Source: Amoebophrya sp. A120 (taxonomy: Eukaryota; Protista; Dinoflagellata). From it: a DNA stretch of 64,000 nt. This document shows positions 3,291 through 64,000 of this stretch, in pieces. The notes beneath the pieces were generated by a model. That model was not told where the DNA came from. It ran no database searches and saw only the letters and a list, made by a program, of their open reading frames with translations. The stretch lies in assembly GCA_905178155.1 (NCBI GenBank), contig CAJINV010000012.1:1740492-1804491 (forward strand), in the 5' to 3' direction. The translations under genes and the position numbers were made by a program. How positions within the stretch are numbered: the stretch's first letter is position 1; every line of letters begins with the position of its first letter.

Positions 3291-4252
3291 GATCTGTGGA
3301 AGTATGCATTGCAAAAGCATCGTACTAGTATAAATCGCATGACAAATTGACTTAGCATTACAAATGAAATTTGTAATGCGGATTTGCCTCAAGAAAAAGA
3401 TTTGTAATGCATAACTGCAATTAGAAGTACGAGTACGATAGTTTTGCAGTTCATAGGAAGGGTCCGAACGGGGAGTACGTCGCTCTTTCCAAAGTCGAAT
3501 CCGCGTATGAAAGTGCACAACTCCACCCCCTCCCCCTCATTTGTAAAGCAGGAACAGCATTAGAAGCATCAGCAGTAGCGCAGGTTCTGCATGACAAATC
3601 TGTACTTAGAGGATTACTGTGCTGTTCCAGCTGCCAGAACTTGTCATGCATAATAGTGACAGGAGGCAAGGCGTGAATTAGGTATTTTGCATGAGAAATG
3701 AGAACGAGGGGGAGTTGTGCAGTTTCATACCGCGTGCAAGCTCAGCCCCTACATCGACCAGTGCTGCGCGTACGGGAAAACCGGCGCGGCAACCCACATT
3801 CTGCTGGTCGTCGCGAACGATGTGAAGCTGAAGGAGCTGGGGAAGGAGCTGGGGCAGGGCGACGGTGATTTGGCGAAAATCAGAACCAATCCGGCGGTGA
3901 TTAACGCGGTGTATGGTTCTATGAAGGACTACTGCAAACAGTCCAAGATCCTCCCCTTCGAAACCCCGGCGAAGTTGCGGATTGTCGACATCGTCTGGAC
4001 ACCCGAGAACGAAATGCTGACTGCCGCGATGTATCCTGTGCAAAAGCATCGTACGCGTAGTAATCGCAGTCATGCATTACAAATCTCGATCCCAAGGTAA
4101 AACAGCATGACAAACTCCATTTCTCATGCTGAGTGAATTTGTCATGCGATTTCTACTAGTGCGATACCTTTGCAATGCATACGATGAAGATGAAGCGACC
4201 CCAGATCCAGAAACAGCACCAGGACTTGTTGGACGAGATGTATTCGGCGTGA
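3291..4252 (+). CDS. Long-chain acyl-CoA synthetase, C-terminal exons (5' part outside window)
   Basis: Splicing out 3 introners gives DLWK-GPNGEYVALSKVESA-CKLSPYIDQCCAYG...WTPENEMLTAAM-KMKRPQIQKQHQDLLDEMYSA* (420 nt, in frame), a typical ACSL/LACS C-terminus. Confidence 0.9.
3303..3455. mobile_element. Introner family A
   Basis: TIR tatgcattgcaaaag/ttttgcagttcata; DR GGAAG. Confidence 0.9.
3506..3729. mobile_element. Introner family D
   Basis: TIR tatgaaagtgcacaactcc; DR CCGCG. Confidence 0.9.
4032..4181. mobile_element. Introner family A
   Basis: TIR tatcctgtgcaaaag; DR CGATG. Confidence 0.9.
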
Positions 4253-5733: not shown

Positions 5734-7517
5734 ATGACCTCCGACCCACACGCCGACTTTTTCGGTCAGGACCCGCAGCTCCAGCAGTTAGGCGATGAGT
5801 TCGATAAACCACCGGAAGAGCGGACGAAACAGGTGGTCGCCTGGCCGCCCCCAGGTTACCGAACCGGCGACACCCTCCTCGACGCCCCGGTGCAAGCGAC
5901 CCATTTGGACGCCGCGGGCGCAAAGGCGGTGTGTGCGGATCTCGGGTATTTCCAGGACCCGTGGATTCGACAAATCGTCCCGGCTTACGTCTGCGGGCGG
6001 AAGAGTCCGATCATGCACCGGGGATACTACTTGCGGAACGTCGCGATGCGGCTGAAAGTGGAGCAGTTTATCAAGAACAGCAATCCCTCTATCAAATGTA
6101 AAAATGTCTGGGTCTGGAAGAGTCATGCTGTTTCTGCATGACACAGAAGGTCTGGCATGGAAGCTCTTGCGTCACAGGTTTCGAGAAGCTTCCGCAATGC
6201 CGAATCCGCATGACAAACCCCCCATTTTGGTGACAGAAAGTGAGCAGCTTTTGCTGCCTATGCATCAGAGATTTTTGTGTGTTCTGAAATGCGCATCACA
6301 AGTTGCATTCTTCCAGACCCAGACACTTTTGCACTTGATACCCTCCCTCCCGATTCAAATCGTGGACTTGGGCGCGTTATGCTCTGCAAAATTATCGTAC
6401 TCGTACTAATTGCAATCATGCATGACAAATCTCGTTTCTTACGCAACTCACCATTACAAACTCTATTTTTCCTTCTGGGAAAATTTGTATTGCGATTTAT
6501 AGATACTAGCGCGATGCTTTTGCAATGCATACGCGGGGCTGAACACCATGTATTTCTACACCTCCGCCATGATGGAGCAGTGGGGCCGGAAAAGATCGGA
6601 CTTGTTGTTCTTCGAGGTGGATTTCCCGGTGATTATCGCGAAGAAGACCAAAACGATCCTGCAGAAGAGGAGCCAACTCTTCAAGTTTGACGAACTAATT
6701 TTCGATAAACCGAGTGGAACGGTTCAGATCAACAACGCGACCGAGTGCACGGTGCGGAATACTGTGCACAAAGTAGAACAGTTGAAGCTCCCCTTCTACC
6801 GGCTGTGCGCGACCGACATGCGGCAGTCGGAAGAGTTTAAAACCGTGTTGAACGAGCAGGGGTTTAACGCGATGGCCAACACGTTGTTCTTGTCGGAGTG
6901 TGTGTTGATCTACATGCAGCCGCAATACGGGGACGCCATCATCCAGCAGTGCCGGGAATTGTCTTTAAACCCCACTTATCCAATGCAAAAGTACTTTATC
7001 GTACTAGTATAAATCGCATGACACATTGACTTAGCATTACAGATTGAATTTGTGATGCGGATTTGACTGAAGAAAAAGATTTGCCATGCATAAATGCGAT
7101 AATTAGTACGAGTAAGATACTTTTGCAATGCATACCACCGCTCTAACCATGTTTGCGACGTACGAGCAGTGTAACCCGGACACGAGCTTTGGAAGAATGA
7201 TGGTGAAGAATTTACAGGAACGGGGTTGTCCTTTAATGTCGATCCACGAGTACAAAACGATTGAGGACCAAATCAACCGGTACAAGAAGTTGGGCTTCAG
7301 CGAGTGCAAGGCGATTTCGATCAACGAGCACGTGAAGCAAACCATGAGCGACGCCGAAAAGGTGCGGATAGGGAAGTTGGAATTTCTAGACGAGGTGGAG
7401 GAGCTGAATCTGTTTTTGGATCACTATTTCTTGTTGACGGCTAGCAACAAAGAGTTGGTGGAGTTGGGGAAGGACGGTGCTGGTGTAGTTGGGACGATAA
7501 CGAGTACGACGGGTTGA
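5734..7517 (+). CDS. LCMT1: Leucine carboxyl methyltransferase 1 (PP2A methyltransferase), 4 exons, ~401 aa
   Basis: Motifs LGYFQDPW, RKSPIMHRGYYLR, QIVDLGAG, FFEVDFP, LSECVLIYM, YEQ..D.FG..M, LEFLDEVEE. The frame is restored by removing 3 introners plus one DR each (1206 nt). Confidence 0.93.
6090..6340. mobile_element. Introner family B
   Basis: TIR tatcaaatgtaaaaatgtctgggtctggaag; DR CCCTC. Confidence 0.9.
6378..6531. mobile_element. Introner family A
   Basis: TAT...ATA TIR; DR CGCGT/CGCGG. Confidence 0.88.
6977..7134. mobile_element. Introner family A
   Basis: TAT...ATA TIR; DR CCACT/CCACC. Confidence 0.88.
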
Positions 7518-8503
7518 CGGCGAGGAAAAAGCCATCCCTGATTTGATTTCTGCCCACCTACGACGAAAAAACTTTGTAAGTAAGACCAACGAGAAGAAAC
7601 CTATTCAGCACGACTTTTTGAAAAAAAATCTCTGAGACCACAGACACCGAGGTGCAACTCGCCGCAAACACGAGGACGCATGCGTTCGTAAAGATTTCCA
7701 TCCAAAAAAGTGTTGCACTTTCTTTCCGCAGAGTCGTTTTGCTTCAAAGTTGGTTTCGTGTCGTTGACGTTGGGAGAACCACCGAGGCTTTTGAATTACT
7801 ACCCGAGACGCAGGTGGTTTGTTAGTGGACTTGAGAACACTCGCACACACTTACACGCGTTTGCTCCACTGAGCTCGTTATCAACAGCAGTTCAATGAAT
7901 TCTCTCAATTGCAAGTAAGCGAGCAAGTGGCGCAAGTCTCTTGCTGCGTTACATCCTGTAGGTTCAATTCATCCAAATTCATCACATTCATATAGACCAG
8001 ACCTGGTCAGAGTCAAGTGGCAAAACAGCATGGGAGTCCACTCCTCAACCTGCTCAGATTGGTGCTCGACCCTGGCGGGAGTCAAGTCCCCCAGGGCGAC
8101 CATTCTGAACGCCTGGACCGAGCTGAGTCCATTCATTTCACTACGATCCTGATGGCTTTGCCTTCGTAGTATTTGGGGGATTCGCGGAACATGGTGAAGA
8201 GTTTCCTTTAGGATCTAGATAGATTCTGACCATTTCCCTAAGGATCTAGCTAGTTCAGGCCATTCAGAGCTGTCATTTCATTGAGGAACAGGCGTCATTT
8301 GGGGCGATCGTGTTACGTGTGTGCGGGATCGATTTCCATGACCAACATGGTTAAAAACCGAACTTCTACTAATATCTGTGTGGCCTCGAGCGAAAATTTT
8401 CTCGTTATTGATTCTCAACATTAGACTTTTGATTGCTCAACCGGACAACGTAAATCTGTACTGACAATTTTGGTTTCTTCTTGATTTATGATTTTGGAAT
8501 CTT

Positions 8504-9742
8504 TTGCACGACAACATTGTCGAATTATTGTCATTTCGTTTGCAAAAACTCAAAATGTCTTCAAACATTGTTTCGTCAGCATGTCCATGTTTCTTGCTTG
8601 GTCTGACAACCTTTCAAAAAGTTTGCTCCTATGTTTTGCTTCTCTCGTCTATCAACTATTTCTGCAACTCGCATGATGCCAAAGCCATCTGCGTCCAGGC
8701 ATTGAAACTCTCTTCGTCGCAACCATTCCGTGGTGGATGTTCTGGTGGTGTCACTGCCCCCACTCAGACGCAGACGGTGGTTGTGGGGGAAGAAGATCGT
8801 CGTGGCGACGCTGAGTCGCGTCCTCGTACTGGCAATTCAGCAAGTAGAAGCTCGAGTCGAATTACCTCGGTCTTCCATCCCGCGCCGCCGCGACGCGCTG
8901 GCGCGGTGGTCACCACGACATCAGGTGCTGATACACGAGCAGAGCCGAGATTTTGCAAGAATAAACCTGCTCCACCCAACAAGAGTAGCAGCAGTACCAG
9001 TAGCACTTCCACTTCGACCGCCGGTCAGAGGAATCTTCTAGATAAAGTGCCTACTACTTGTGATGTTACATCAGCAACGCGCGCGGCAACCGCCTCTGGG
9101 CGAACTGGTGCTTGCCCCGACCGCAGTGCCGCTAGTGAATTTTTACCCTGTAGTGGTCGCAGCGCCGAGGCATCTTCCGGTAGCAACAGAGACTCCCCCG
9201 TCCTCGAGAGAAACTCGCAGCGAAGAAAAAAGCATAAGCAGCCACAATCACAAAACCAACATAAGCAGGAAAACGATGACGCTCCTGAGGTTGTTGATTA
9301 TTCCGCACATTTTCGCCACGCCCGCGTCGGACCGATTTTGCCGCCAAGCGACCTTTTCAATTTTCTGACACCGTGGCCGTGGCCGCAGGATTCGCACACT
9401 CGTACCGATGCGAGCGCATCCTCGTCCGATAGTGGACGTGAAGCCGAAAAGCAAAAAAACAAACACGATGCGCGAGGACTGCAGAAGCCACCGCAATGCG
9501 ACATCGACGGGGAGGTTGTCTGCGAAAGATATATTCCCAGCGAACAAGATGAGGAGATGACGTCTTCCTGTACCGCCACTGTTTTCTCGCTATTTTGGGG
9601 CCCCTGCCACCGTAGTGGTCATGGAGGTTCGGGTCTTGATGTTTACAGAAAAAATATGGAATGGAAACAGGTGCTGTTACATCATCTTCGCGATTGGGCG
9701 GCTATTTGTCATGACGGCAAACCAGCAGACTTCTATGTCTAA
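8504..9742 (+). CDS. Hypothetical protein; hydrophobic N-terminus, S/T/R-rich low-complexity body (likely ATG at 8555)
   Basis: 412-aa open frame with no introners and no recognisable domain. It may be truncated by the downstream insertion-rich region. Confidence 0.45.
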   Translation: MHDNIVELLSFRLQKLKMSSNIVSSACPCFLLGLTTFQKVCSYVLLLSSINYFCNSHDAKAICVQALKLSSSQPFRGGCSGGVTAPTQTQTVVVGEEDRRGDAESRPRTGNSASRSSSRITSVFHPAPPRRAGAVVTTTSGADTRAEPRFCKNKPAPPNKSSSSTSSTSTSTAGQRNLLDKVPTTCDVTSATRAATASGRTGACPDRSAASEFLPCSGRSAEASSGSNRDSPVLERNSQRRKKHKQPQSQNQHKQENDDAPEVVDYSAHFRHARVGPILPPSDLFNFLTPWPWPQDSHTRTDASASSSDSGREAEKQKNKHDARGLQKPPQCDIDGEVVCERYIPSEQDEEMTSSCTATVFSLFWGPCHRSGHGGSGLDVYRKNMEWKQVLLHHLRDWAAICHDGKPADFYV

Positions 9743-10647: not shown

Positions 10648-10988
10648 CGTGCGTGCGTGCAAATGTCTTGTGCTGTGTCTTTTCTCTCGTTTTGCGGACG
10701 AAAACCGCGTGCAGCTGCCATAAACGGAATATGGATCACGACAAATGCGCCTCACCATGGGCGTTGGGGGCCGCCCGCAAGGAGTGGGTGTCCTCGGGAA
10801 GCACCTGCGCATACACGCCCAGGAACCCACGACGGTAGGATAGGATACGGCACTGCTGTGTCGTCCTGCACCCCCCCCGCGTATGCAGGTCCCAAGCCCG
10901 GTGATCCTGGGGCGGAAACCGGGGAAATGCCTAAGGGATCTTGGTTTGGCAGCAATCATACTGTAACACCATAGACCTAGAGTAGCAG
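10648..10988 (+). mobile_element. Short retroposed element (SINE or 5'-truncated LINE) with 15-bp target-site duplication
   Basis: GC-rich 341-bp insert in AT-rich DNA, flanked by TATGAATATTTGGAT at 10633-10647 and 10989-11003. Its 3' end resembles the LINE 3' end at ~3095-3200. Confidence 0.7.
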
Positions 10989-23800: not shown

Positions 23801-24326
23801 CGTATTAGAACGTGAGCAGTGAAACAACTGCGATAAAAATTGGGAAAAGTAATCATGTGTTTTTTTTTCTTCTGCATCAGTATACAAATACACAACCAAA
23901 AACTACAAAATTTACTGCTCTACTCGACGGCTCCCAAACAGTTTGGTACATGTTATCTGCTAATCTCTTTTTCCTACGAAACCAATTTGCTAAAAATCAT
24001 CTTCAAGCACAAGCTGCGCGCTGTAGTGGGCCATCGATGTCAACACCTGACGGCCAAGTAACGTACGAAGCTAGAAACAAAAGTCAATGCAAGTCAATTC
24101 TACTCTCTAACGGTAATGGGTAGAAACTTCAAGTGAAAAGCTAAAGCTAGTGTCTGTAGTTGCTGTTTGAGTACGACAATATCTCGCCTATTTTCAATGG
24201 TAATATTCATAAGAGCGATTGGGATAGCGAAAAGCTTGTAGGAGATAGGAGAAATACTCATCAGAAAATTTGAAAAAAATCAGACCTACATTCTCCTGGT
24301 TATACGAACTTCTTCCCTACTGGTAT

Positions 24327-51300: not shown

Positions 51301-54300
51301 CGCTTCCCAAGGGAAGACACGCTTGCAAATGCAATGCCTTGCAGGTGTAGCAAGACAAATAATTCTGTCTGCCATTTTGTGCATCACAAGTTCACAGTGA
51401 AACACTTTTTTCGTACGATAAACCATTCTGCGATTGGAGGCTGTTTGGATAGAAGGAGTTGAAGACACAGTCCTCCGACACCGCGTAGATTTTGTAGTGG
51501 TAATCCGATACGTAGTAATCCCTGTCGGCGACGTTCGAAGTCAAGCCGGATGCGGTGGTATGCTCTGCAAGAGTATCGCACTCGTAGTAATTGCAGTCAT
51601 GCATTACAAATCATTATCTGAAGGCAAATCCGCATTACAAAGTTTATTTTTCATGCTGAGGAAATTTGTCATGCGATTTCTACTAGCGCGATGCTTTTGC
51701 ATTTCATAGGTGGTATCGTCCAACAAATCGGCGTGGTTCTGGCACACATTCTGGTCCGAGTTTTTTGCACAGCAGACTTCCAGATTTGCGGACCCACGCT
51801 TCAGGTCCCCGTTCTCCACGCTTGCGGTGGTTGCGTAGTTGAAGCCGTTGTTCACATTGAACTGATTTTTCACGTTGTTCCCGCCCTCATCCTGATAAGC
51901 ATTTGACCCCCCGTCGGGTAAGATTGATGATAATCCGGGAAAGAGCAGTCTGTTGCTCTTTATCGGACAGGACCCCCGCGATTCCTTCCACTCGATAAAT
52001 CCGCCGACGGAATCTGTAAACAGATCCAAATCGAAGAAATCGAGCTCCAGAGACGCGAATCGGTCGGTGACTGGGGTGGAAAAATCAGACGTGGTTAGAG
52101 AAGTGGAAATCCGCTGCGAGCCGAAGGAATTCACCGCGACGATTCGCAAAAACCGGGTGGAAGCGCCCGTGTTCGCGACTCTTTTTGTAGTTGAACTTGT
52201 CATGATGTCGATTGTGGTGTTCAGATTGCTGAAATGCAAATCCTCCAATACCCCCAAATCGTGGTCCGTGTTTTTCGTGATCGAGCCGAGGAAAGTGTTA
52301 TCCGGAATGGGGAAGACAAAATTCGTGACTTCCGCCACGGGATCTTCACTTGCGGTAGAAACTACACTTCCGCCGAGCTTTTTGGTTGAACACCGCTCGC
52401 TCATTGCCAAATTCGATCCGCTTTCGGCGTAAATACCATCGAGACCACCACTTGCTGCTGCTGCAGAAGATGTATGAGCTGCAAAAGTATCGCACTCGTA
52501 TAAATGCATTACAAATTTTCTCAGCATGAGAAATACAATTTGCAATGTGGATTTACTTTAAGAAAGAGATTTGTAATGCGTGACTGCAATACAAGTACGA
52601 TACTTTAACTTTTGCACAGGATAAGATGAAACCCGATTCACACACGGCGACAAACTGCTGTAGCTTAAGCTAGTGGACGCCGTTATAGGAGTGTCAGGAT
52701 TGAAATCGAAAAAGTTGTAATGCATAAAACCGATACCAGTTGGAAGACCAACGACCAAGCGGCGCATGACAAATTTCGGCACTGTCTAAATCCAGTTTGT
52801 CATGCTGTTTAGGCACAGAAGGCTGCTTTTGTCATACTTACTACTTCAGCAACTCTATGATCTCAAAGCCCAAACAGGGTTACAGTTGGCCTCTCTTGCA
52901 ATCCCTGCAAGACAGTCACTTCGGGCCTTGCGTTTTGTGCATGGGAAACTCTTTCAACAACTTTGACGATTTCGATCCTGACGCTCCCATAGTCGTAATC
53001 CCGACGCTGTGCTCGGCACTGGTCGCTTTGCCCACAAACCAGACGTTGGAAGTGTAGAAGGTTGTGTTGTAGCCGTTTGCTGCAGTAACGTCGTCGAGGG
53101 AATGCGGATAAACATCGAAGTCCTGGTTCTCGGCGATCCCATCGACCAAATAGATCAAATACTCGACGGCATGGTAAGGAAAAATCCCCCCTCTCCGTAT
53201 TGAAAGCGCATCTTTCTAAGCAAAAACTTGCGATGCAGATTTGTGGCCACAAATCGGGTCTGTCGTGCAAGAAGGCACGCTCAGAGTGCCCGCCACGTTA
53301 TGCATGCGATTTGTAACGCTGTAAGACGTCCAGGGTAGCCGTCTACCATGCTAGGCGCCTACACCACAAGGTCCCAGCTTAGGCCAAGGACCTGCGTGCA
53401 TTCCTCTACTGCAACACAAATCATAATATGATTTGTGTTCCCAAATCCAGCATCAGAAATTTCGTTTTGATATGGGGGGGGATTTTTCGTTTTGATAGAC
53501 GGCGTGGTCTCCTGCTGCTGTTGGAGGCTTCATCGCCGAAAAGGTCAAATTCCCCGCGATCTGGTCCACATCCGGGTCGTAATCGACAAACTCCTGAACA
53601 TCAAACGCCTGCCCGTTGAAATTCAATAAAGTCGCAAACCCTGTCGGAAACGCGGTTTCCGTGTACATTGTGTTGGTATTCGAATCGAACGTGGAAGAAT
53701 AGACCGCAATGTACATCTCCCCCGGCGGGAAATTTGTGTCTTTCGATATCGCTTTCGTGACCTGCTGGACGAAACTGGCGCTGTTTGTCGTGGATAAAAA
53801 CTCAAAATCCGTGAAAATTTGATTCGCCCCGACCGGCCCGATTTTTGTCGTGCAAACGTAGCTCGGATGGTTGTAGTTCCGCAAACAATCCTCCGAAACG
53901 ACGTAGACGGAGTGAAAAACCCGGGTCTGTGCCGGGAAAAAATCAGAAGACGAACTAACTGCGGTGCAAGCAGAACTTTGCGAACAGCAAATCTCGTTCC
54001 CAGCCCCCCCAGTAGTGTTCCCCCCCGGATGAAGCGGCACATCACCGGACAGTCTGCCAGAACTGATCCCTCGGGGGCAGGTCGCTGCACCTAAACTAAA
54101 ATCTATACTGCCCCCGATCTCGTCCAAATCGACGTCTTTGTCGGTAAAATTCCCGATGGCCAACGAAACAAACGAGTCCTTCACTTCCACATTGGAAACC
54201 GTGACATTGGTCAACTGCTGTCTCTATCAAATGCAAATATGTAGTCTGGGTCTGGAAGAGTGCAGACTTCTCATGCATGTTTTCTATGCCCCATGAGGTT

Positions 54301-57300
54301 TGGAATGCCGGATCTAGAAGCATGACAGGGTCTGCGACGTCTCTATCATGCCTATCCTGCAAGACAGACTGTCTCTAAACTTGTTCAAAAGTGAACAGCT
54401 TTTGGTAGTCATGCAACGCAAATTCTTGTACGATCCAGACTTAGCATGACAAGTTCGCGTCCTCCCAGACTCAGACATAATTGCAATGCATAGTCTTCCG
54501 TAGTCCGTGACCGCGAGGATTCGTAACTGCCGGTAGGACTTACCGCTCGCTTGGTCTACAGAGTTCGCAAAAGAGGAGGAAACGAGGACCGTGTTGTCCG
54601 GAATCTGTAAGGTATATGAAAGCCTCAGGTTGGAAATCCTCAAAGTGGAAATTACTATCTATTATATTCATGCGAAAATATTGGCTAGAGAGGGTAAACG
54701 AGAGGTGGCCGGGAGGTCAAAAAGAGGTCAAAAAGAGGTCGACAGAGGTGGGGAGGTGGCGCGGGAGGTAGTTCGGGAGGGTGGCCGAGAGGTGGCGCGA
54801 GTATAGCCCGCCGAAGGGGTCGCACTTTGGGGCCGCTAAGCGGCACGGAGGTGGCCGAGAGGTAAAAAAGAGGGCGCGCGAGAGGTGGGCAGAGGTGCCG
54901 AGAGGTTGCGCGAATAAGGGCGAACCTCTCGCGCACCCTCTGGGCCACCTCTCGGCCACCTCTGTCGACCTCTACCGGCGAGTATAGCCGGATTATTAGC
55001 AACACCTCTCGGAGAAGGTGAAAAAGAGGGTCTGCGAGAGGGGTGCAAAAACTCGAATCCGCCCGGCACGCGGCCAATTTTGCTTGGGCCTTTTCATCGC
55101 GCAGGCCCGCACCCTTTCGCGCCACCCTCCCGCGCTACCCTCTCGCGCCACCCTTTCGCGCCACCCTCTCGCGCCACCCTCTCGCGCCAGCGATTTCCGC
55201 CGAGAAGCAAATAGGGCGGGGGCGGGTGGGTGATCAAAAAAGGGCATTGCGGCCCCCGTTCTGTTTCCTTCGGCATCTATGTCGGAGCGGCTTCTCTTCG
55301 CCCCCAAGCTTCGCTGCAGCTGCTCCCTGCGCATAGCGCCTGAAGGCGCGGGAAGCGCGCAGGAGGCCCAGCGGGTTGAGATGGCGCAAACCGGCGCCAG
55401 TATTTCCTTCGAACTATCACGCCATGCGCAAAGCTCTGGCGCTGTGGCGCGATCCGCAAATAGTCCTGCCCCGCCACAACAGCCGCTCGCCCCGGCGTCA
55501 GCCGGGGCATGGCTGGTAATTTGTAATGCAAAAAAACGACTCCAGTTGAAGCGCCATTTGTAGTCGGCGCATGACAAATTTCCCGGGCACTCAAAGCGTG
55601 TCTGTCATGCTAGTTAGGCAAAGGGGTGCCCTTCTGTCGTGCTAATCAGCACTCCAATTCTTAACCCGTAGCAGGACAATAGTCGGCTTCCCTTGCATCC
55701 TCTGCAATACAGTCTTTTATGCGTCGCATTTCATGCATCACAAATTATTTCCACGTTGAGGATTTCCATTCTGAGGCTTTCATAAGGTAAACGTTAAGTT
55801 CGTCTGCCCATCACTGTTCATGCTGGTCTATGCAATGCAAAAGCATCGTACTACTATGACTTGCATTACAAATTAGCTCAGCATTACAAATTCAATTTGT
55901 AATGCTAATTTACTTTGAGAAAGAGATTTGTCATGCATAACTGCAATTACTACGAATACGATACTTTTGCACAGGATATGGTCACAGCAGGAGTCAAGCT
56001 GGAAAAAGAACCGACGTACCAGGCGTTCTTCGAGTACGTTGTGTCGGTCTTGTAGTAGCTACTTGCGTCGGTCAAGTTCGCCGGGTAGTCATCTACAAAT
56101 TCTGTCTGCGACACAACATTTGCGCTCGCAGACCCGCCATCCACCGCGATCGCGGTATTGGAAGCTAAGCCTCCAGAAGTCTCCAACTTGTACCGTTTCG
56201 CCGTCGTGTCGTACCAGAGACCGGGGTACTGGTTCGGTAATAAGTAGTTCGGACAAGAAGAACTGCTAGCGCAGCTGGCGTAAGAGAATTTCCCAGTTAC
56301 ACTCGTGTCGTAGTTCGGATCCACGAGATACACAAAATACCCGACCTCCACATTATCCTGCCGGCCCGGCATATCCAAGAAAAAAACTGTGTTAGTGTAA
56401 CTTTCCTTGGCTGACAGCATCACAAATTTGCTCTACATGACAGCGAAAACCTGTCATGCGTGGCTTGTAAGGGAAAACACACTTGAAAAGAGGACTTATG
56501 GTTGTCTGGCATGACAGGTGTAACTCTGTTGCATGTTCTGCATCACAAAGTTACACTTACACAGTTTTTTTCTTCCATACGGCACGGTGAAATTCACCGA
56601 GCCCGCAAACTGCCCCACATCCGGGTCGAAATCACCAGTGACAGCCACATTGCTGCCGGACATGCTTGAGTCTGTGTGGATTATAACGTTGTCTTCGTTT
56701 TTCACCTTTACGTACGCTATTGGCGTCGCTGTTTCCGCGAAGGTGGTTAGAGCGCCGTTGATGGTCGTGGTCATCTTTGTGTACACTGCAAGGTAGTTTT
56801 CCGCGGCGAAACTGTAGCTGTTCAATGGGAGCAAGATCTCCTGCAAAACTGTTGCATCGCTGGTGAAAGTATTGAATGTTGTATCAAATGCAAAAGTGTC
56901 TGGGTCTGGAAGATTCTGAGACTTGTCATGCAGTTTTTCCAAGCTCCGCCAAGTCTCGAATGCAGGGCCTAGCATCACAAGTTCTGCAGACCCTAGGTGA
57001 TGCCTATTCTGCATGAGAAATGCCCCCTCGGCATGGCTAGAAATGGGGACCTTTTGCAAGTCATGCAACGCAGATTTTTCTATGATCCGCAACACGCATC
57101 ACAAGTTCGCATCCTTCCAGACCCAGACATTTTTACATTTGATACGTTGTGATGTCTTGCAACATGGCGTTCTTCGTTGTGCAAGGGGACAGCGGCGATT
57201 GGATACAGTCCGCGGACACTTCGTAAAAAGCGAAGGTCAAGTATGCAGGAAAAAACACGACCCATCCGCATCCAATTTGTCATGCAAAACACCCATGCAC

Positions 57301-60300
57301 TCCAGTGTTTGTGATGCAAAAAAAGGATGGGGATGGGTGTTTTTTCTTGGATATCAAGGAGTCAGAATCCGCGGAATTTTCGGCGATGGTCACTATCAAA
57401 TGTAAAAACGTCTGGGTCTGGAAACTTGTGATGCAAGCCCGTGAACAGTAAGTGTTCTGTAATGCACCGCCAAGCATGACAAGTTTTTTCGTGCTCTTGT
57501 GCTGCGTATTTCGCATGAGAAACTGCGCTTTTGCATGACAGGCAAGAGAGCCTCTTGGTGGCCACGCAATACAGAGTGCGGAGTCATGCCAGACTAGCAT
57601 GACAAATCTTGCAATCTTCCAGACCCGGACATTTTTACAATGCATAGTCACTGGCGTGGTGCAATACAGATTTGCGGTAAACGGGTCGCAACAAAGCGAG
57701 AACCCCTGGCTCCCGGAGTTCAGGTTTGTCGTCTGATGATGTGAAGGTTTTTTTTATACAGGAAATTTTTGATGCCATGATGCACAAACACCAACGAGAT
57801 CATACAGTTCTTACAGACACTACAACTTTCGTCAGTCGCGAAAACGAATACGATACAGTGACACCATAAATATGTAAGTTGTTACGAAAAACATCATGAA
57901 TATCTTCATACCGTCGTCTCATTCATCGGGCAGCTTCTGGGCGCGCTGTGCACGCTGTATCGAATGCAAACATATCTGGGTCTGGAAATAAAGTGGAATT
58001 TGTGTTGCATGTCTAGCATTTCTGAAAAATTAAAATGACCTGTGTTGCGTAGGCAGCAATGGTGTTGCTTTTTTGTCATGCAAAGACGCAGTTTGCCATG
58101 CTTGCTGCGCATCAGACGGCGTTAGGTGAACTTGTCATGCTTCGCTGCACTTGAAAGCACCAGACTCATCCACGCTCTAGCATCACAAGCTTCCAGACCC
58201 AGATCGATATTTGCAACCCATACGCTGACCGGGCCGCCAATCTTGTCTCCATCCACGTCGTAGTCGGTGAAGTTTTTCTATCCTGATAAAAAACGTCCCC
58301 ACCCCGTACTTGTAATGCAAATCTGCATGCTGAAAATGTTTCTCATGTGGAGCCCCATGAGAAAACACCTGCTAGTTGTGTTTGGCTATTTGTCATAGTC
58401 ATACTCCAGTCAGCATGATATGCTGGATCTGTAACACTGCTAAACTAGCTAAACAGGACTACTACACTGCGAGGCCATATGATTTGTTATGCGCACCAGC
58501 CAAAGCTTGTTGATTTGTCTAGCAGATTTCATCCCATCTTGACTACAGGGCGAAGACATTTATTTTACACAGGATATCTTCAGTCCGAGCGACATGAGCC
58601 GATCGGTGGCGAAATAACCGTATGCAAGAAAAAAACTGCGTAAGTGTAAACCTGGATATGCAGAACATGCAACAGATTTACGCCTGTCATGCCAGACAGC
58701 CATGAAGCCCTCTTCTCATGTGTGTTTTTCCTTACAAGCCACGCATGACAGGTTCTGCTCTGTCATGTAGAGCAAATTTGTCATGCTGTCACCCAAAGAT
58801 AGTTACACTAACACAGTTTTTTAATTTGGATAACCCACTCGGCGTAATCACTATCGGTTTCCCGTACACCTTATCCTGTGCAAAAGTATCGTGCTCGTAT
58901 TGCAGTCATGCATTACAAATCTTCTTCTTAAGGCGAATCCCCATGACAAATTTCATTTCTCATGCTAAGGAAATTTGTAATGCATTTATAGGACGAGTAC
59001 GATACTTTTGCAGTTCATACACCTCAATCTCACACAGCGATAACTTCTTCCCGACCGTAGATACCTGAACGGTTATCTTCGTTCCGACCAAATTGCAGTC
59101 GCGACTCACCTGCACGCCGTCAGTATTCGCGTCGTAGGAGCTTGATGAACTTGATGTTCCGCTGCAACTTGTCCCGTCGACAAACAGCTCGAATCCGTTC
59201 AAATCGGTTTTTATCAAATGCAAAAGTGTCTAGGTCTGGAAGAATGCAGGTTTGTCATGCATGTCTGGCATGCCTCGAGCATCTGTGTTGCATAGGCACG
59301 AAAAAGCCCTCGTACCTGTCCTGCAAAAACGCAGTTTGCCATGCGCAATACGTAAGTAAGACATGGGCATGGCAGCCAAAAAAAATATCATGCATAGCTG
59401 CGTATTGCAGTGCGTCTATCATTCACTTTTAGCATTACAAGTTTCCAGACCCAGACGTATTTGATGCAATCCATAGTTTTCAAGCTGTCGTTTCTGTTCG
59501 TCAACCGCACAGCAGAAACGTTGAACGGTAATTGCAATTGCAGATTCAGTTGCTGCGGGCTCGTCGAATCCGCAACGGGGTCAGTTTCGCTGCAATATCC
59601 AGAGAAAAAAGTGTGTAAGTGTAACTTTCTTTGAGGAACAGCATCACAAATTTGCTCTACATGACAGAGAAAACCTGTCATGCGTGGCTTGTAAGGCAAA
59701 ACACACATGAAAACAAGGCTTCATGGCTGTCTGGCATGACAGGTGCAACTCTGTTGCATGTTCTGCAACACAAATTTGCACTTACACAGGTGTTTTCTTG
59801 CATATGCAACTTGGCAAAATCAGTCCAGGGCTGCTGTCGTTGTACGTGGCAAGGTTGTACTCCAAATCGTCTTGAAAGTTCGTGTTTCCATCCACCGCGA
59901 GCTCCGCATCGTTCCGCTGGTCGCCGTTGGCAAAAGTGGACGTCTGGCTGACGATTGCAACGCCACCGGAGGATAAATCCAGCCAGGAGAAACCTGTGTT
60001 CCACTCCGCAGAAAATTTCTCCGGTAGGTACCTGACCGAGCAGATCGCGGGTAGCCTCGTATTGCATATCAATGCGAAAAATCTCCCCTCCCCGTATTGA
60101 AGCGGAGATTTCTGTTGCTGGATTTGTGTACACAGATCAGCTCGGTCTTGCAGTGAGGCACTGCAGCCGAAGCCTAAACCTGCGCGGGGGTGTTTTGCGG
60201 TAGGAGCTTAGCATAGCAGAGGCCTGCCATGTAGGCGCAACAGCATCACAAATCGCCTGCGTAAGTCGGCGGATTATTTGAATTTGCCCTCTTGCAAGAA

Positions 60301-63300
60301 AGACAAGGTTTGTGGTCACAAGTCAACATCACAAATTTTCAAAAACATTCCTTTTCAGTACGAGGACGGGGGATTTTTCCTCATGATATTACACGGTCTA
60401 TCCCGAAAGCCGGTGATGCTGTGCGTCACACAACCGGTATTACTATTCGGCTGGCCGCGGCTATGCGAGTGCACAACTCCCCCTCGTTCTCATTTCTCAT
60501 GCAAAATCCCAAAGCCAAGTGCTTCCCTGTGGCACTGTTTGCATCTCAGATTCCGGAAGTACTAGCGCAAACAATACTACACTAGGCGCAGGAATTTGTC
60601 ATGCACAGGCTCCGCGCGTGCAGGTGCTTGTATGGCTTTTCATGCAATACAAATGAGGGGGAGGGGGAGTTGTGCACTGTCATAGCTGCGCCATTTGGAG
60701 GCGAGGGAAAAGCTGGGTTTCCGCTGCACGTCTTCGAGGAACCGGAAATCGCCCGTGCCGTCGCTATTGGTAGTGGTCAAGCCTATATCAAGTGCAAATA
60801 GAAATATGTCTGGGTCTGGAAGAATGCATGTTTGTCATGCTTGTCTGGCATGACTCTTACATCTGTCATGCACGTTACCCAAGGGCCCCGGTGTTCTGTC
60901 ATGCAGAAACGCAGTTTGTCATGCAGAATAGGCAACACCTAGAAGTAGCTCAAAAAGAACTTGTCATGCTGAGCCAGCACTTGTGGCCTCCTCATGATAC
61001 GCCACCCAGCATCACAAGTTGAAGTTTCCAGACCCAGACATATTTGCAATGCATAGCCTATCCACGCCTGCTGCCCCGAAGACATCAACCCGGCGGACTG
61101 GAGAAAATCGTAGTCCGCCGTTGTATATCCTGTGCAAAAGTATCGCACTCGTAGTAATCGCAGTCATGCATGACGTGGCCTAGGTACGCACATACGACTC
61201 GGTGCGCCAAATCGTATGCGCGTTACAATTTTCGCGCTTTTTTCATTGAGAAAACCCGCCAAAAAGCAGCACCGAGCCCGGTGCGGTTTGTAACGTATGG
61301 CAGCACCGAGCCCGCCAGAGTATGTCTTTTTGCCCACCTACAAAATTGGTATTGTAGCGGCGCGCCTTCACAATACATTTTGGCGCACCGAGGCGGCGCG
61401 CAAAAACGTCCCATTGCGCGCCTTTCCCAGGTGGCGCAGGCGCCTTCGCCTCCTGCGTTTTTTACCTTGCCCTCGAACGCGGGCCAGGGTCCGGGTTTTG
61501 TTTTTCTGGCCACCAAGGCCCGCGCGCGTGGCCTCGCGAATTAGCCTATGGGCCCCCCCGGTCCCCCCCCTCCCCCCCCCCGCGTGCGTTTTTTCGCTTC
61601 GTACACGCCCGCGCCTGCGTCGCCCCCTGCCTTCCGCGGGAGCTTCTGCTCGCGGCGTCGCGCGACGAGCACTACCTCGGACGCACGGCAACAGCACCGA
61701 ATTTGTTTCACGTGTCTCACCGTCTCACCCCAAAAAAAACCAATCTTGGCACCGCCGCGCCCCGAGCGCTTTTTTCCATTTCTGTTGCTGTGTTCCGCCC
61801 GTCTGCTGCTTTATTCCCGCCTACAATTTGGCGTACCGAGGCCGTCCGCCTCGGTGCACCGAGGCGGCCACTCCGAAAAACTGGCATTTTTGGCCTCGGT
61901 GCGCCATTTTGTATGCGCGTCCTGAAGAAACTTCTTCTAGCCTCGGTGCGCCAACTTGTAGTGGCGTACCGAGGCCACGACACTACCGAGGCGACGTCAT
62001 GCATTACAAATTTCTTTCTCAAGGTAAATCCGCATTACAAATTTTATTTCTCATGCTGCGGAAATTTGTTATGCGATTTATACTAGTACGATGCTTTTGC
62101 ATTTCGTATTGTATCCACCGTCGCGAGAACTGATTCGCCGGGAATCAATTTCGCACAGTAATTCACCGCTTCGTCCCGAGAGAAATCAGACGCGGACGAT
62201 GCTATCGAGACCTTCCGAAACGCCATCCCGGTGGCCTCGCTGCAGGAAAAGCCAGCAGGACAGGCGTTGAGTGTGGAGTCTGCGTTAGTTCCTGTAGCTT
62301 ATGCTCTACAAAAGTATCGCACTCGTACTAATTGCAACCATGCATGACAAATCTTGTTTCTTCGCCAAATCAGCATTACAAACTCCATTTTTTTCTGAAA
62401 GAACTTGTATTGCGATTTATACTAGTACGATGCTTTTGCAATGCATATAGCTCCTGTTGTTCCGACCACTATATCGTTGTTCGCATTCGGGTGCTTCTCG
62501 ACAAATTGCCCCTCCTCAAGCTCCAGGCTGTCGAGCGCGAAACTGACGAACGGAAAGATTACGTCGCTTGTCGCGATGTCGAGCGTAATTTGACTAGACC
62601 CAGCGGGGAGAGACACCGCAACTGGTTTCGTGTAGGCCCAGGACCTGGTGTTTTCTCCTTGAGTGGAGGACGTGGTGGAGAAAGTACTTTGGAAGGAAAC
62701 AAACTCCCCATTGCTGGCGTTGTTGGAAGCGGGGAGGATCACGGTCGAGTTTAACTGTTATGAAAGCCTCAGGTTGGAAATTCTCAAAGTTGAAATAATT
62801 TGTAATGCAAAAAAACGATCCCGGTCGACGCCCCCCTTCTAGTCGGCGCATGACAAATCTCCGGGGCACGTGAGGCGTGTCTGTCATGCTGTTTAGTGCA
62901 AAGGGGTGCCCCTTCTGTCATGCTAGTCAGCAACCCAATCCTTAGCACGTAGCAGGACAATAGTCAGCCCCCATTGCGATTGCGTGCTCTGCAATACAGT
63001 CAGTCTATGCGTCGCATTTCATGCATTACAAGTCATTTCAACTTTGAGCATTTCCAACCTGAGGCTTCCTTAACTGTAGGCTTGCGGACAGGGTGGCTTG
63101 CGACAAGTACTGGGCATTCGCCGTGTTTGAGGTGTCAACGGCTAAGGAGTAGCGGAGTCGTATCATATGCAAAGACGTCCCCCCCCATAGTCAAGTTGGG
63201 AACGTAGCAACACAAATCCAGAAGTTTTGGGAGCCACGCATGACAAGTTGCGGTCCGTAGTGTCGTGCATGTTAGCAAGAACAGCCGCATCACAAATCCA

Positions 63301-64000
63301 TCTGCTTATCCTGTTTGCAGCATTACAAGTGCCAAAACACGATTGGAAATGCCTCCCTTGGAGACGCGCATTACAAATGTTCCTGCAATTGCAAATCTGC
63401 ATGACAACTCTGGGGTGGGGACGTTTTTACACAGGATAAACCGAACCAAATAGATTTTCGCGGTGCAGGTGCTCGTCTGAAAGGTCAACGAGAATCCTAT
63501 GGAGAGGAAAAAACCCCCCTCCCCATATCGAAAAGGTATGTTTGCGAAAATTTGTCTTGCTGACTTGAGACCACAAATCACGTCTGTCTTGCAAGAAGAC
63601 AACTCCACAGGCTCTGCCGCATTGTGCAGGCGGTTTGTGATGCTGTTGGGCCTACAGCATAGACGTTTCTCATGCTAAGCGCTAGGCCAAAACTTCTCTA
63701 CTCAGGCTTGGCAGGAGCCTGCAGTCCTCTACTGCAAGACAAACGTGATTTGTATACGCAAATCCAGCATCAGAAACTTCCGTTTGATAATGGGAGGGGG
63801 GATTTTCCCTTGTGATAAATCCGCCAAAGCTGGTTCCCGAGACCTGCACATACCCCGACCCAGAGAACCCGTCTGCGAAATAGCCGCCCGGGGTGGTTGC
63901 AGCCGCGTTTTGCTTGGTCGCTAGAGTCGTGGAGCCGAATATGGCCGGAGTGACCGCACTCGTCTGCTCGGCTTGGTATACCCCGTCGCAGAAGTCTTGC
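24327..64000 (-). CDS. Giant modular extracellular/lectin-like protein, 5' end outside window (~6,970 codons in window, ~66 exons)
   Basis: Removing 63 introners (+5-nt DR each) and 2 GT-AG introns leaves 20,914 nt, in phase with the open frame at 64000. Order N to C: CBM6/35-like (YQAEQ...GFSGSGYV), C-type-lectin-like (AVNYC...AWIG), FTP/fucolectin-like (AELAVDGN...VRLTNR...LSLCEIEVYG), ~17 F.D.D.D..EI.G repeats, second CBM-like, YHYH domain, FN3-like C-terminus ending VFRAV*. Confidence 0.8.
24495..24631 (-). other. Canonical GT-AG intron (no TIR)
   Basis: gcg|gtagag...actcag|ccc keeps frame. Confidence 0.75.
24883..25154. mobile_element. Introner family B
   Basis: DR GGTTT. Confidence 0.9.
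27387..27651. mobile_element. Introner family B
   Basis: DR GTTGT. Confidence 0.9.
28240..28400. mobile_element. Introner family A
   Basis: DR AGTAA. Confidence 0.88.
28445..28658. mobile_element. Introner family C
   Basis: DR AGACC; interrupts YHYH motif LDGFPV|Y. Confidence 0.9.
28955..29237. mobile_element. Introner family E
   Basis: TIR ...aaaaacgYccccacYccagag; DR TACCT/TCCCT. Confidence 0.87.
30929..31164. mobile_element. Introner family B
   Basis: DR TCGTC. Confidence 0.9.
31350..31526. mobile_element. Introner family G
   Basis: DR TGTGG/TGTGC. Confidence 0.82.
31654..31915. mobile_element. Introner family B
   Basis: DR GTCGT. Confidence 0.9.
33531..33755. mobile_element. Introner family D
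   Basis: DR CTCCA. Confidence 0.9.
33796..33944. mobile_element. Introner family A
   Basis: DR AGGCG/AAGCG. Confidence 0.88.
34658..34810. mobile_element. Introner family A
   Basis: DR TTGTT. Confidence 0.9.
35349..35620. mobile_element. Introner family B
   Basis: DR TGAGT/TGAAT. Confidence 0.88.
35738..36055. mobile_element. Introner family F
   Basis: TIR tatcaaaaggaaaatccgccctcccc; DR GCCTA/ACCTA. Confidence 0.87.
36124..36268. mobile_element. Introner family A (left TAT mutated to AAT)
   Basis: DR AGAAA/AGAGG; frame restored. Confidence 0.83.
36896..37044. mobile_element. Introner family A
   Basis: DR GCTTT/GTTTT. Confidence 0.88.
38106..38366. mobile_element. Introner family B
   Basis: DR GATCG/GATCA. 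Confidence 0.88.
38532..38793. mobile_element. Introner family B
   Basis: DR ACAGA. Confidence 0.9.
38857..39011. mobile_element. Introner family A
   Basis: DR CGCCG/GGCCG. Confidence 0.88.
39343..39513. mobile_element. Introner family G
   Basis: DR GAGTT/AGGTT; degenerate TIR. Confidence 0.78.
39682..39969. mobile_element. Introner family E
   Basis: DR TCAAA. Confidence 0.88.
40025..40265. mobile_element. Introner family C (with internal ~30-bp duplication)
   Basis: DR GTGTT. Confidence 0.9.
40567..40777. mobile_element. Introner family C
   Basis: DR CGTTG; close relative of the 40025 copy. Confidence 0.9.
40841..41096. mobile_element. Introner family H
   Basis: Long TIR tatgacacgctcag..gttacaatctca; DR GAACT/AATCT. 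Confidence 0.85.
41220..41428. mobile_element. Introner family C
   Basis: DR AGTGC. Confidence 0.9.
42025..42259. mobile_element. Introner family H-related
   Basis: TIR tatggcgttctcaa..gttacattctcaac; DR CTGCG/CAGCG. Confidence 0.87.
42725..43948. repeat. GC-rich modular minisatellite with GCCACGTGGC palindromes
   Basis: Units of ~20/30 bp built from gcgtggcgc, cacgtggcgt, cacgggga, tcct. Confidence 0.93.
43953..44600. repeat. 24-bp tandem repeat with a perfect 16-bp palindrome GACCTGAATTCAGGTC (~27 copies)
   Basis: Unit gacctgaattcaggtc plus YccgRctR. Confidence 0.95.
45681..45943. mobile_element. Introner family B
   Basis: DR TGAAG. Confidence 0.9.
45990..46241. mobile_element. Introner family B
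   Basis: DR GGGCC/GGTCC. Confidence 0.88.
46374..46622. mobile_element. Introner family B
   Basis: DR GAGGT/GGGGT. Confidence 0.87.
46714..46863. mobile_element. Introner family A
   Basis: DR TACAA. Confidence 0.9.
47409..47673. mobile_element. Introner family B
   Basis: DR AGGAG/AGCAG. Confidence 0.88.
47743..48002. mobile_element. Introner family H
   Basis: DR CTGGG/CTGGA; inverted relative of the 40841 copy. Confidence 0.88.
48049..48303. mobile_element. Introner family B
   Basis: DR AATTC. Confidence 0.9.
48403..48655. mobile_element. Introner family B
   Basis: DR TCAAC. Confidence 0.9.
49610..49891. mobile_element. Introner family E
   Basis: Near-perfect TIR tatcctgagtaaaaacgtacccac; DR GCTGT. 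Confidence 0.92.
49929..50137. mobile_element. Introner family C
   Basis: DR CGTAA. Confidence 0.9.
50541..50755. mobile_element. Introner family B
   Basis: DR ACGAT/GCGGT. Confidence 0.85.
51212..51420. mobile_element. Introner family C
   Basis: DR AACCA. Confidence 0.9.
51559..51708. mobile_element. Introner family A
   Basis: DR GGTGG. Confidence 0.9.
52473..52623. mobile_element. Introner family A
   Basis: DR AGATG. Confidence 0.9.
52684..52991. mobile_element. Introner family I-related
   Basis: TIR tataggagtgtcaggattgaaatcg; DR GCCGT/GTCGT. Confidence 0.87.
53170..53497. mobile_element. Introner family F (left terminus CAT)
   Basis: DR GACGG. Confidence 0.87.
54225..54492. mobile_element. 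Introner family B
   Basis: DR GTCTC/GTCTT. Confidence 0.88.
54615..55784. mobile_element. Introner family I hosting a nested Helitron-like element
   Basis: TIR tatgaaagcctcag..tggaaatcctcaa; DR AGGTA; an uninterrupted sister copy lies at 62759. Confidence 0.9.
54652..55516 (+). mobile_element. Non-autonomous Helitron-like element
   Basis: Inserted between A and T with no TSD (empty site seen in 62759 copy). 3' hairpin GCCCCGGC-gtca-GCCGGGGC (55489-55508) followed by CTGG; 5' end TTACTATCTATT. Confidence 0.72.
55829..55978. mobile_element. Introner family A
   Basis: DR TGGTC. Confidence 0.9.
56372..56579. mobile_element. Introner family C
   Basis: DR CGGCA. Confidence 0.9.
56882..57144. 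mobile_element. Introner family B
   Basis: DR TGTTG/CGTTG. Confidence 0.88.
57242..57353. mobile_element. Short introner (112 bp, C-like termini)
   Basis: DR TCAAG. Confidence 0.87.
57394..57646. mobile_element. Introner family B
   Basis: DR GTCAC. Confidence 0.9.
57733..57911 (-). other. GT-AG intron, possibly a decayed introner
   Basis: acg|gtatga...catcag|acg keeps frame; residual DR GACGG/GACGA. Confidence 0.72.
57958..58222. mobile_element. Introner family B
   Basis: DR CGCTG. Confidence 0.9.
58279..58576. mobile_element. Introner family E
   Basis: DR TTTTC/TCTTC. Confidence 0.86.
58621..58832. mobile_element. Introner family C
   Basis: DR AACCG/ACCCA. Confidence 0.85.
58872..59019. 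mobile_element. Introner family A
   Basis: DR CACCT; interrupts CEIEV|YG. Confidence 0.9.
59212..59475. mobile_element. Introner family B
   Basis: DR GTTTT. Confidence 0.9.
59596..59804. mobile_element. Introner family C
   Basis: DR TGCAA. Confidence 0.9.
60067..60388. mobile_element. Introner family F
   Basis: DR TTGCA/TTACA. Confidence 0.87.
60462..60684. mobile_element. Introner family D
   Basis: DR GCGGC/GCTGC. Confidence 0.88.
60786..61055. mobile_element. Introner family B
   Basis: DR GCCTA. Confidence 0.9.
61126..62108. mobile_element. Introner family A hosting a nested TIR element
   Basis: DR TTGTA; the family A sequence resumes after the insert. Confidence 0.88.
61171..61999. 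mobile_element. Non-autonomous TIR element with 4-bp TSD TGCA
   Basis: TIR tgacgtggcctaggta / taccgaggcgacgtca; internal caccgagg/cctcggtg subterminal motifs. Confidence 0.78.
62300..62447. mobile_element. Introner family A
   Basis: DR TAGCT. Confidence 0.9.
62759..63072. mobile_element. Introner family I
   Basis: DR ACTGT. Confidence 0.9.
63161..63438. mobile_element. Introner family E
   Basis: DR AGTCG/AACCG. Confidence 0.85.
63498..63817. mobile_element. Introner family F
   Basis: DR AATCC. Confidence 0.9.

Follow-up and report, generated by a model that had tools for sequence, protein, structure and literature searches.

How can exons stay readable when they are filled with transposons that carry no consistent splice sites? 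The question is raised by a 64,000-nt stretch of the Amoebophrya sp. A120 genome (contig CAJINV010000012.1, positions 1,740,492 to 1,804,491; hereafter the window), in whose genes a first-pass annotation, made from the sequence alone, had described 74 elements with terminal inverted repeats (TIRs) that start with TAT and end with ATA, flanked by a 5-bp direct repeat (DR) and removed from transcripts together with one repeat copy. Judged by their sequence, these are the introner elements that Farhat et al. 2021 (PMC7789003) described in A120, and the system is thus already known, since a public A120 protein is identical to part of our reconstruction and the end motif, size and repeats match those published; the annotation had the genus right but understated this match. 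Passages of that paper describe inverted repeats of 8-20 nt that read TAT, seven variable bases and at least three A, direct repeats of 3-5 nt at the borders, an average of 240 nt for non-canonical introns, 29,850 repeated introns in 1,954 families and, for tens of thousands of copies, support from RNA-seq, and passages of Gozashti et al. 2025 (PMC12130899) report tens of introners within single A120 genes. As far as these two sources go, the published elements share with ours the TAT+7+AAA ends, a length of about 240 nt, an inverted repeat with a short direct repeat, the many families, insertion into exons and non-canonical borders, with no difference in kind. What the window adds is a uniform 5-bp duplication directly outside TAT/ATA, removal of the element plus 5 nt, copies in both orientations, and symmetric ends. 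As to mechanism, U1 small nuclear RNA was not detected in A120 and splicing is called unknown in passages of PMC7789003, and a review treats it as open in the part that bears on it (PMC11282704). Among the papers searched, none resolves it; both the orientation and the 5-bp duplication may already have been reported in subscription journals (Roy et al. 2023 among them) or in supplementary figures.

The elements and the length that leaves the transcript

The catalogue, built from a scan for TAT...ATA pairs, an end profile, BLAST inside the window and checking of the reading frame, comprises 74 entries, 72 of them with clear TIRs and two doubtful (57734-57910 and 42635-44716); the element at 14562-16694, into which a large insert is nested, is kept outside this number (Table 1). 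Pairs that span up to 400 bp and have a perfect repeat on either side occur 45 times with a repeat of 5 bp, 5 times with 4 bp and twice with 6 bp, and the same scan on 20 block shuffles returns only 2-9, which excludes chance. A repeat length of 5 bp dominates, as annotated, but no more than 45 of the 74 entries have two identical repeat copies; 22 entries show a single mismatch, 6 show two and 1 shows four. Lengths lie between 112 and 328 bp in 71 of 74 (median 238.5 nt; outliers of 983, 1170 and 2082 bp), and the 72 clear elements sort into 10 multi-member families plus 6 singletons (highest identity 90%), so that the annotated number, size range and roughly ten families stand. Among the seed ends, T1, A2 and T3 are conserved at 98% and A11-13 at 87-89%, and the TAT triplet is intact at 140 of 144 ends. 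Short, non-coding, bounded by TIRs and by a target site duplication (TSD) of constant length and free sequence, and present in many copies, the elements count among the miniature inverted-repeat transposable elements (MITEs), the origin that had been proposed for them.

Full-length relatives of most window elements are present in a second set of loci. The end pattern matched 160 loci in metagenome contigs, the 80 that were listed all coming from one public assembly, of the same strain as the window or another; 159 loci (414 kb) were analysed, and viral contigs gave no match to the pattern. A detection that took neither TAT nor the repeat as a criterion gave 296 elements in this second assembly; 217 of them carry a 5-bp repeat free of mismatches and a single one a perfect 6-bp repeat, and of the 250 whose repeat copies differ at one position or none, 229 have TAT at both ends. 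A second detection returned 320 elements, of which 140 could be phased in coding frames. Given the TIRs, the constant duplication length, the free target sequence and the use of both orientations, a DDE transposase acting in trans would almost certainly have inserted the elements, near-randomly within exons, in either orientation and with a 5-bp duplication. No strong base preference was seen within the repeat, and no autonomous or transposase-coding element in the window or the 159 loci scanned. A motif, AT[GT]ACAA, recurs inside 58 of the 72 clear elements, in both orientations and in unrelated families (6.9 per kb versus 0.36 in exons), and is, by its sequence distribution, a possible transposase-binding site.

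To see what leaves the transcript, four runs were mapped on 16450-36400, which holds 18 elements. Contigs of run X8, presumed to be RNA-derived, contain junctions for 6 of the 18 among the joints listed, and in all 6 what is missing is the element plus exactly 5 nt, as the annotation had predicted; five of the six cannot be read as GT-AG anywhere within the repeat. The X8 contigs also lack two GT-AG introns (19060-19213 and 24495-24631), and the contig over a gene for an ADAM metalloprotease contains no other letter that differs, which identifies them as spliced transcripts of this locus. Single contigs lack several consecutive elements. The remaining listed joints, which fall within elements, have short sides; sister copies are their likely source, so that retention is not measurable from these contigs. 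Raw RNA runs X5-X7 gave element-like part reads on the same region and covered no exon, and for 45000-54900 no RNA run containing the sequence was listed; neither has any bearing either way. Hundreds of RNA reads of X7 match element interiors or ends at 90-99% identity on 20194-20241 and 33824-33915, again with no exon; sister copies thus exist in RNA, as retained, untranslated-region or excised forms.

The reading frame leads to the same length. Removal of 64 entries and one GT-AG intron from a giant gene turns 24.3-64.0 kb into 6,969 aa without a stop, which bears out the claim of a frame kept across some 40 kb, and at all 23 junctions where each side has just one open frame the extra bases removed leave a remainder of 2 modulo 3. 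The frame alone cannot separate 2, 5 and 8; the value of 5 follows from the repeat length and the RNA contigs. Lengths of element plus 5 fall into all three classes modulo 3 (27, 24 and 23), so that unspliced transcripts would be dead, and the elements of 983 and 1,170 nt also lie in the intact giant-gene frame. Mismatches between the repeat copies fall preferentially on third codon positions (18 of 34), which shows that the spliced product is under selection. A search of public proteins with one giant-gene exon found P0016, an unnamed protein product of Amoebophrya sp. A120 that is identical to residues 4600-6969 at 2370 of 2370 positions and whose gene model omits 8 elements and the GT-AG intron. 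The further claim that conserved proteins are rebuilt holds in two of three cases: Pfam finds LCM on a single exon of LCMT1 (E 7e-11) and Reprolysin and Disintegrin on single exons of ADAM, but the 97-aa exon labelled as acyl-CoA synthetase (LACS) has no match in Pfam, NCBIfam or PDB, and that name, which goes back to a motif, is left unconfirmed.

These observations bear on two ways in which the junctions could mislead. Reverse transcriptase might have switched template across a hairpin, from one direct repeat to the other, in which case the true transcripts would retain the elements and the genes would be dead. Short direct repeats around structured RNA are a known signature of this artefact (PMC8240250), the RNA evidence here and in Farhat et al. 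is all cDNA-based, and the main text of PMC7789003 has no passage on template switching. Such an artefact would leave unexplained why 6,969 codons stay in open frame after 64 removals that belong to all three length classes, why the mismatches favour third codon positions and why single contigs lack several elements in a row, and we regard it as so improbable as to be nearly negligible. Alternatively, the elements might be excised from the DNA in the expressing stage, in the manner of ciliate internal eliminated sequences, so that transcripts never contain them; precise excision of DNA would yield the exact loss of the element and one target duplication in either orientation. However, of the words in a 9.9-kb stretch rich in elements, run X1 contains 0.75, the second assembly carries the same families in coding frames, and we know of no germline/soma split in Amoebophrya. 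Passages of PMC7789003 report no transposase in A120. Excision at the DNA level is thus very improbable.

Splice signals, paired ends and the position of the cut

As a class, the elements do not fit a U2-type GT/GC donor with an AG acceptor. A cut within the repeat has six possible registers, all of which yield identical mRNA when the repeat is perfect, and GT-AG can be read in some of them for 4 of the 74 entries (20133, 28445, 35738 and 58872); across 202 phased sites, from the giant gene and the second set of loci, it is readable at 12 versus 7.6 expected (p 0.07). The annotated lack of GT-AG is sustained in so far as such fits occur at chance level, but four copies can be read that way, and canonical GT-AG introns occur in the host genes as well. 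Read in the direction of the transcript, the 5' and 3' ends differ at none of the 20 positions tested, and the sense strand of the window elements shows no branch-point motif and no AG enrichment. Copies do lie in both orientations, as first described: 26 of 54 are flipped in four families, and 40841 and 47743 are opposite sisters at 79.5% identity. That removal is independent of orientation is suggested by the open frames and the public gene model, the flipped copies at 28240, 28445 and 31654 entering through the frame and P0016; the main text of PMC7789003, figures being outside this scope, has no passage in which the orientation of elements is discussed.

In the transcript, the two TIRs are predicted to pair and close a stem. 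For the 70 elements under 400 nt, predicted end-to-end pairing over TIR positions 1-14 is 0.68 in the sense and 0.65 in the antisense strand, versus 0.009 in exon controls. The element and 5 nt would then leave, as six junctions show directly and as we infer for the others, and because this restores the pre-insertion mRNA, insertions would be nearly neutral and hence accumulate. Probably it is the end of the stem, not the flanking dinucleotides, that would set the two cuts, at r and 5-r bases outside, with r from 1 to 4. This range is weakly suggested by two sequence comparisons: the LGAG motif of LCMT1 (LG[ACS]G in 11 of 15 LCMT homologues) needs the downstream copy at repeat position 5 of the element at 6378, and P0016 retains the upstream copy at position 1 for the element at 31350, so that the intron would take 1-4 bases before TAT. 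No stop-creating allele was found among the mismatched repeats (29 window and 22 locus cases), and polarising the mismatches of these cases by GC-to-AT bias, in a hand tally, gave no preferred register. The NT-AN dinucleotides of Table S4 of Farhat et al. were not adopted as the true register, since aligner preference inside the repeat could produce them. Codon position 3 is where 100 of the 202 target duplications start (p 7e-6); when fitted on these data, a symmetric preference for the target accounts for 41% there, which leaves the excess unexplained.

Since neither the ends, the flanks nor the orientation carry spliceosomal information, we favour excision by cutting and ligation guided by the paired ends, without GT-AG chemistry, a reading to which we give about an even chance. 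The catalysis would be due, on what we judge to be even chances, to an endonuclease and an RNA ligase as in SOS splicing, with the spliceosome still handling the GT-AG introns. A modified, U1-less spliceosome might instead remove the elements as lariats, a hairpin or adaptor protein replacing U1/U2AF, and cut one base before TAT (N-TAT keeping a U at +2) or one after ATA (keeping an A at -2). According to passages of PMC7789003, A120 possesses the greater part of the spliceosome and no U1 was detected in it, and tunicates are described, in a source used in part, as splicing non-GT-AG introns with an altered spliceosome; the canonical donors in the window, GTATAG, GTAGAG and GTATTA, resemble N-TAT, in each of the three degenerate elements TAT is preceded by G and an in-frame AG lies close by, and registers 1 and 4 are within the allowed range and would both put the enriched insertion class in phase 0. 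Against such a spliceosome, the 140 phased elements show no G enrichment before TAT and no 3' AG, the two ends are equally conserved, a sense-strand branch motif was not found, and the published NT-AN borders, seen in part of Table S4, are explicable by the aligner preference mentioned above. We consider it quite possible, if on balance doubtful.

The terminal triplets looked at first like a splice code. In the window 4 of their 432 sites are changed, compared with 34 mismatches in the repeats, one of them from a doubtful entry (p 2.5e-4), and private changes occur at 1 of 324 triplet positions versus 4.3% at internal positions, a conservation that could be transposase-driven. In the second assembly, 14 of the 140 phased elements carry a terminal-triplet change. 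TAT as a strict splice code was not kept as a firm claim.

Several points weigh against paired-end excision by cutting and ligation. Symmetric ends and hairpins are expected of any TIR transposon, however it is removed. Triplets in the second assembly change at the rate of the repeat clock (14/840 versus 26/1400, p 0.87), and TAT/ATA is consequently not established as a strict splice code. At TIR positions that are not Watson-Crick, G-U (34) and A-C (33) are balanced, which indicates no selection for pairing on the transcribed strand, positions 4-7 are paired in just 23-47 of 72 elements, and the element at 31350 has a predicted end pairing of 0.00, yet is absent from P0016. Junctions were listed for no more than 6 of the 18 elements and stem from a single run, presumed to be RNA, and the RNA-confirmed copies within each family all point the same way. 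A120 has 83 of 89 spliceosomal proteins plus U2, U4, U5 and U6 (PMC7789003, in the passages concerned), and SOS splicing is described as imprecise in passages of PMC12779559, whereas A120 is exact in six of six junctions.

Host genes and inserts within elements

Since P0016 begins at reconstructed residue 4600, the public model likely truncates or splits the giant gene, whose exon 48663-49604 has no match among public proteins of 551-2000 aa. In the giant protein a D-x-D-x-D...(I/V)GG motif recurs; it also contains YHYH and FN3 domains in its C-terminal part (precomputed Pfam annotation of P0016), and, near its start, cysteine motifs that we take to be lectin-like. The ADAM contig of X8 stops matching one base outside the 14562-16694 element and has 1,180 further bases, so that the gene likely continues to about 13662, where a Ser/Thr stalk and membrane anchor are likely. 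Two open reading frames (ORFs), 204-2234 (+, 677 aa) and 8492-9739 (+, 416 aa), have no Pfam or NCBIfam match, nor has the former one in the Atlas; the former, upstream of the LACS-like exon and strongly purine-skewed, may be a retroelement remnant.

Some elements contain inserts of their own. The insert nested in 61126-62108 has a 5-bp repeat on both sides and GGC...GGC-type ends, and within the TIR of the introner at 14562-16694 lies an element of about 1.9 kb with its own TIRs of about 120 bp, a 68-bp tandem array and an apparent 8-bp duplication, which we presume to be hAT-like. Within a giant-gene intron, 42753-44620 consists of adjacent tandem arrays with units of 52 bp and 24 bp. The degenerate or nested elements at 57733-57911, 42607-44717, 14562-16695 and about 14330-14470 all have G-TAT and an in-frame AG nearby; such elements may be introners turned into GT-AG introns.

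Table 1 Features of the window (DR mm, mismatches in the direct repeat)
Feature	Position	Strand	Remarks
Acyl-CoA-synthetase-like gene, last exons	3291-4252	+	open frame after removal; 3 elements
LCMT1 (leucine carboxyl methyltransferase) gene	5734-7517	+	3 elements
ADAM metalloprotease-disintegrin gene, 5' part	16696-20860	-	4 elements, 1 GT-AG intron
Giant gene, at least 6,969 aa	24327-64000	-	64 entries, 1 GT-AG intron; 5' end outside window
Canonical GT-AG intron, ADAM	19060-19213	-	ends; junction in X8 contig
Canonical GT-AG intron, giant gene	24495-24631	-	junction in X8 contig; P0016
Element	3303-3455	+	150-nt family; perfect DR
Element	3506-3729	+	224-nt family; perfect DR
Element	4032-4181	+	150-nt family; perfect DR; flipped relative to 3303
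Element	6090-6340	+	260-nt family; perfect DR
Element	6378-6531	+	150-nt family; DR mm at position 5; conserved LGAG requires downstream copy
Element	6977-7134	+	150-nt family; 1 DR mm
Degenerate element, 1.9-kb nested insert	14562-16694	-	DR lost; may splice as GT-AG; outside the 74
Element	16962-17115	-	150-nt family; RNA junction, skip 159
Element	17599-17859	-	260-nt family; RNA junction, skip 266
Element	18765-18926	-	singleton; RNA junction, skip 167
Element	20133-20343	-	209-nt family; RNA junction, skip 216; GT-AG reading possible
Element	24883-25154	-	260-nt family; RNA junction, skip 277
Element	27387-27651	-	260-nt family; RNA junction, skip 270
Element	28240-28400	-	150-nt family; flipped relative to 16962; absent from P0016
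Element	28445-28658	-	209-nt family; flipped relative to 20133; absent from P0016; GT-AG reading possible
Element	28955-29237	-	283-nt family; 1 DR mm; absent from P0016
Element	30929-31164	-	260-nt family; absent from P0016
Element	31350-31526	-	singleton; DR mm at position 1 (upstream copy in P0016); no predicted end pairing
Element	31654-31915	-	260-nt family; flipped relative to 24883; absent from P0016
Element	33531-33755	-	224-nt family
Element	33796-33944	-	150-nt family; 1 DR mm
Element	34658-34810	-	150-nt family
Element	35349-35620	-	260-nt family; 1 DR mm
Element	35738-36055	-	singleton in window; 1 DR mm; GT-AG reading possible
Element	36124-36268	-	150-nt family; 2 DR mm; one terminal triplet changed
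Element	36896-37044	-	150-nt family; 1 DR mm
Element	38106-38366	-	260-nt family; 1 DR mm
Element	38532-38793	-	260-nt family
Element	38857-39011	-	150-nt family; 1 DR mm
Element	39343-39513	-	singleton; 2 DR mm
Element	39682-39969	-	283-nt family
Element	40025-40265	-	209-nt-related pair
Element	40567-40777	-	209-nt-related pair
Element	40841-41096	-	258-nt pair; 2 DR mm; flipped relative to 47743
Element	41220-41428	-	209-nt family
Element	42025-42259	-	singleton; 1 DR mm
Doubtful element, two tandem arrays	42635-44716	-	4 DR mm; in-frame GT-AG alternative
Element	45681-45943	-	260-nt family; perfect 20-bp TIR
Element	45990-46241	-	260-nt family; 1 DR mm
Element	46374-46622	-	260-nt family; 1 DR mm
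Element	46714-46863	-	150-nt family
Element	47409-47673	-	260-nt family; 1 DR mm
Element	47743-48002	-	258-nt pair; 1 DR mm
Element	48049-48303	-	260-nt family
Element	48403-48655	-	260-nt family
Element	49610-49891	-	283-nt family; perfect 20-bp TIR
Element	49929-50137	-	209-nt family
Element	50541-50755	-	260-nt family; 2 DR mm
Element	51212-51420	-	209-nt family
Element	51559-51708	-	150-nt family
Element	52473-52623	-	150-nt family
Element	52684-52991	-	310-nt family; 1 DR mm
Element	53170-53497	-	322-nt family; one terminal triplet changed
Element	54225-54492	-	260-nt family; 1 DR mm
Element	54615-55784	-	310-nt family; 1,170 nt owing to extra internal sequence
Element	55829-55978	-	150-nt family
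Element	56372-56579	-	209-nt family
Element	56882-57144	-	260-nt family; 1 DR mm
Element	57242-57353	-	singleton; shortest (112 nt)
Element	57394-57646	-	260-nt family
Doubtful element, no clear TIR	57734-57910	-	GT-AG intron 57733-57911 more likely
Element	57958-58222	-	260-nt family
Element	58279-58576	-	283-nt family; 1 DR mm
Element	58621-58832	-	209-nt family; 2 DR mm
Element	58872-59019	-	150-nt family; GT-AG reading possible
Element	59212-59475	-	260-nt family
Element	59596-59804	-	209-nt family
Element	60067-60388	-	322-nt family; 1 DR mm
Element	60462-60684	-	224-nt family; 1 DR mm
Element	60786-61055	-	260-nt family
Element	61126-62108	-	150-nt family; nested insert of about 0.83 kb (983 nt total); one terminal triplet changed
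Element	62300-62447	-	150-nt family
Element	62759-63072	-	310-nt family; one terminal triplet changed
Element	63161-63438	-	283-nt family; 2 DR mm
Element	63498-63817	-	322-nt family

Relation to other systems and meaning

Within the genus, strains AT5 and ex Karlodinium use GT-AG, and ex Karlodinium has U1 (bioRxiv 2024.09.05.611473, in part), which confines the non-canonical trait to part of Amoebophrya. The TA..TA termini of the window elements are shared with the IS3EU/GingerRoot transposons, whose TSD is usually 6 bp instead of 5 bp (PMC10045372, in part); this likeness fits the A120 TIR introners with integrase-like ORFs that passages of PMC12130899 report. Introners of Aureococcus, Micromonas and Polarella are likewise transposon-derived introns spread through exons, but carry or co-opt recognisable splice dinucleotides, which the A120 elements do not (PMC7789003 and PMC11282704, each in part).

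Two systems without GT-AG borders come closer. The nonconventional introns of Euglena, an unrelated lineage, resemble those of A120 in a proposed MITE-like origin, a paired terminal motif at a set distance from the junctions and the presence of GT-AG introns alongside, but need a paired triplet, CAG/CTG, at fixed spacers of 3 and 5-6 with a purine at the exon start (PMC12501133, in the passages concerned), whereas A120 has TAT/ATA, spacers that total 5, no exon-base preference that we could see, and single triplet changes in open frames; the Euglena-type pattern N3-CDG ... CH'G-N5-6 with a purine does not describe the window elements. In SOS splicing, TIR DNA transposons leave the mRNA without GU-AG, as in A120, triggered by pairing of the ends and dependent on RTCB (AKAP17A-CAAP1-RTCB). 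It leaves indels, whereas the six A120 junctions are exact, though contigs drop rare variants; Amoebophrya is not mentioned in the passages of PMC12779559 from which this description comes. With a likelihood that we put just short of even, A120 may have a second, nucleotide-exact and spliceosome-independent form of mRNA splicing, in which an endonuclease and ligase measuring from the end of the TIR stem would take out every TAT...ATA transposon, whichever way it points, together with exactly one copy of the target site. Serving some 30,000 introns, it would be the precise counterpart of animal SOS splicing and convergent with the Euglena introns.

The elements and their splicing are already in print, and the window contributes detail, not discovery: it sharpens the known rule to the element plus exactly 5 nt, in either orientation and with free flanks, and its copies with differing repeats (29 of 74) can show the true cut position from ordinary RNA-seq. 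If true, a precise, stem-guided cut-and-ligate mechanism would explain how transposons can fill exons at almost no cost, and would constitute a second general route of nuclear mRNA splicing.

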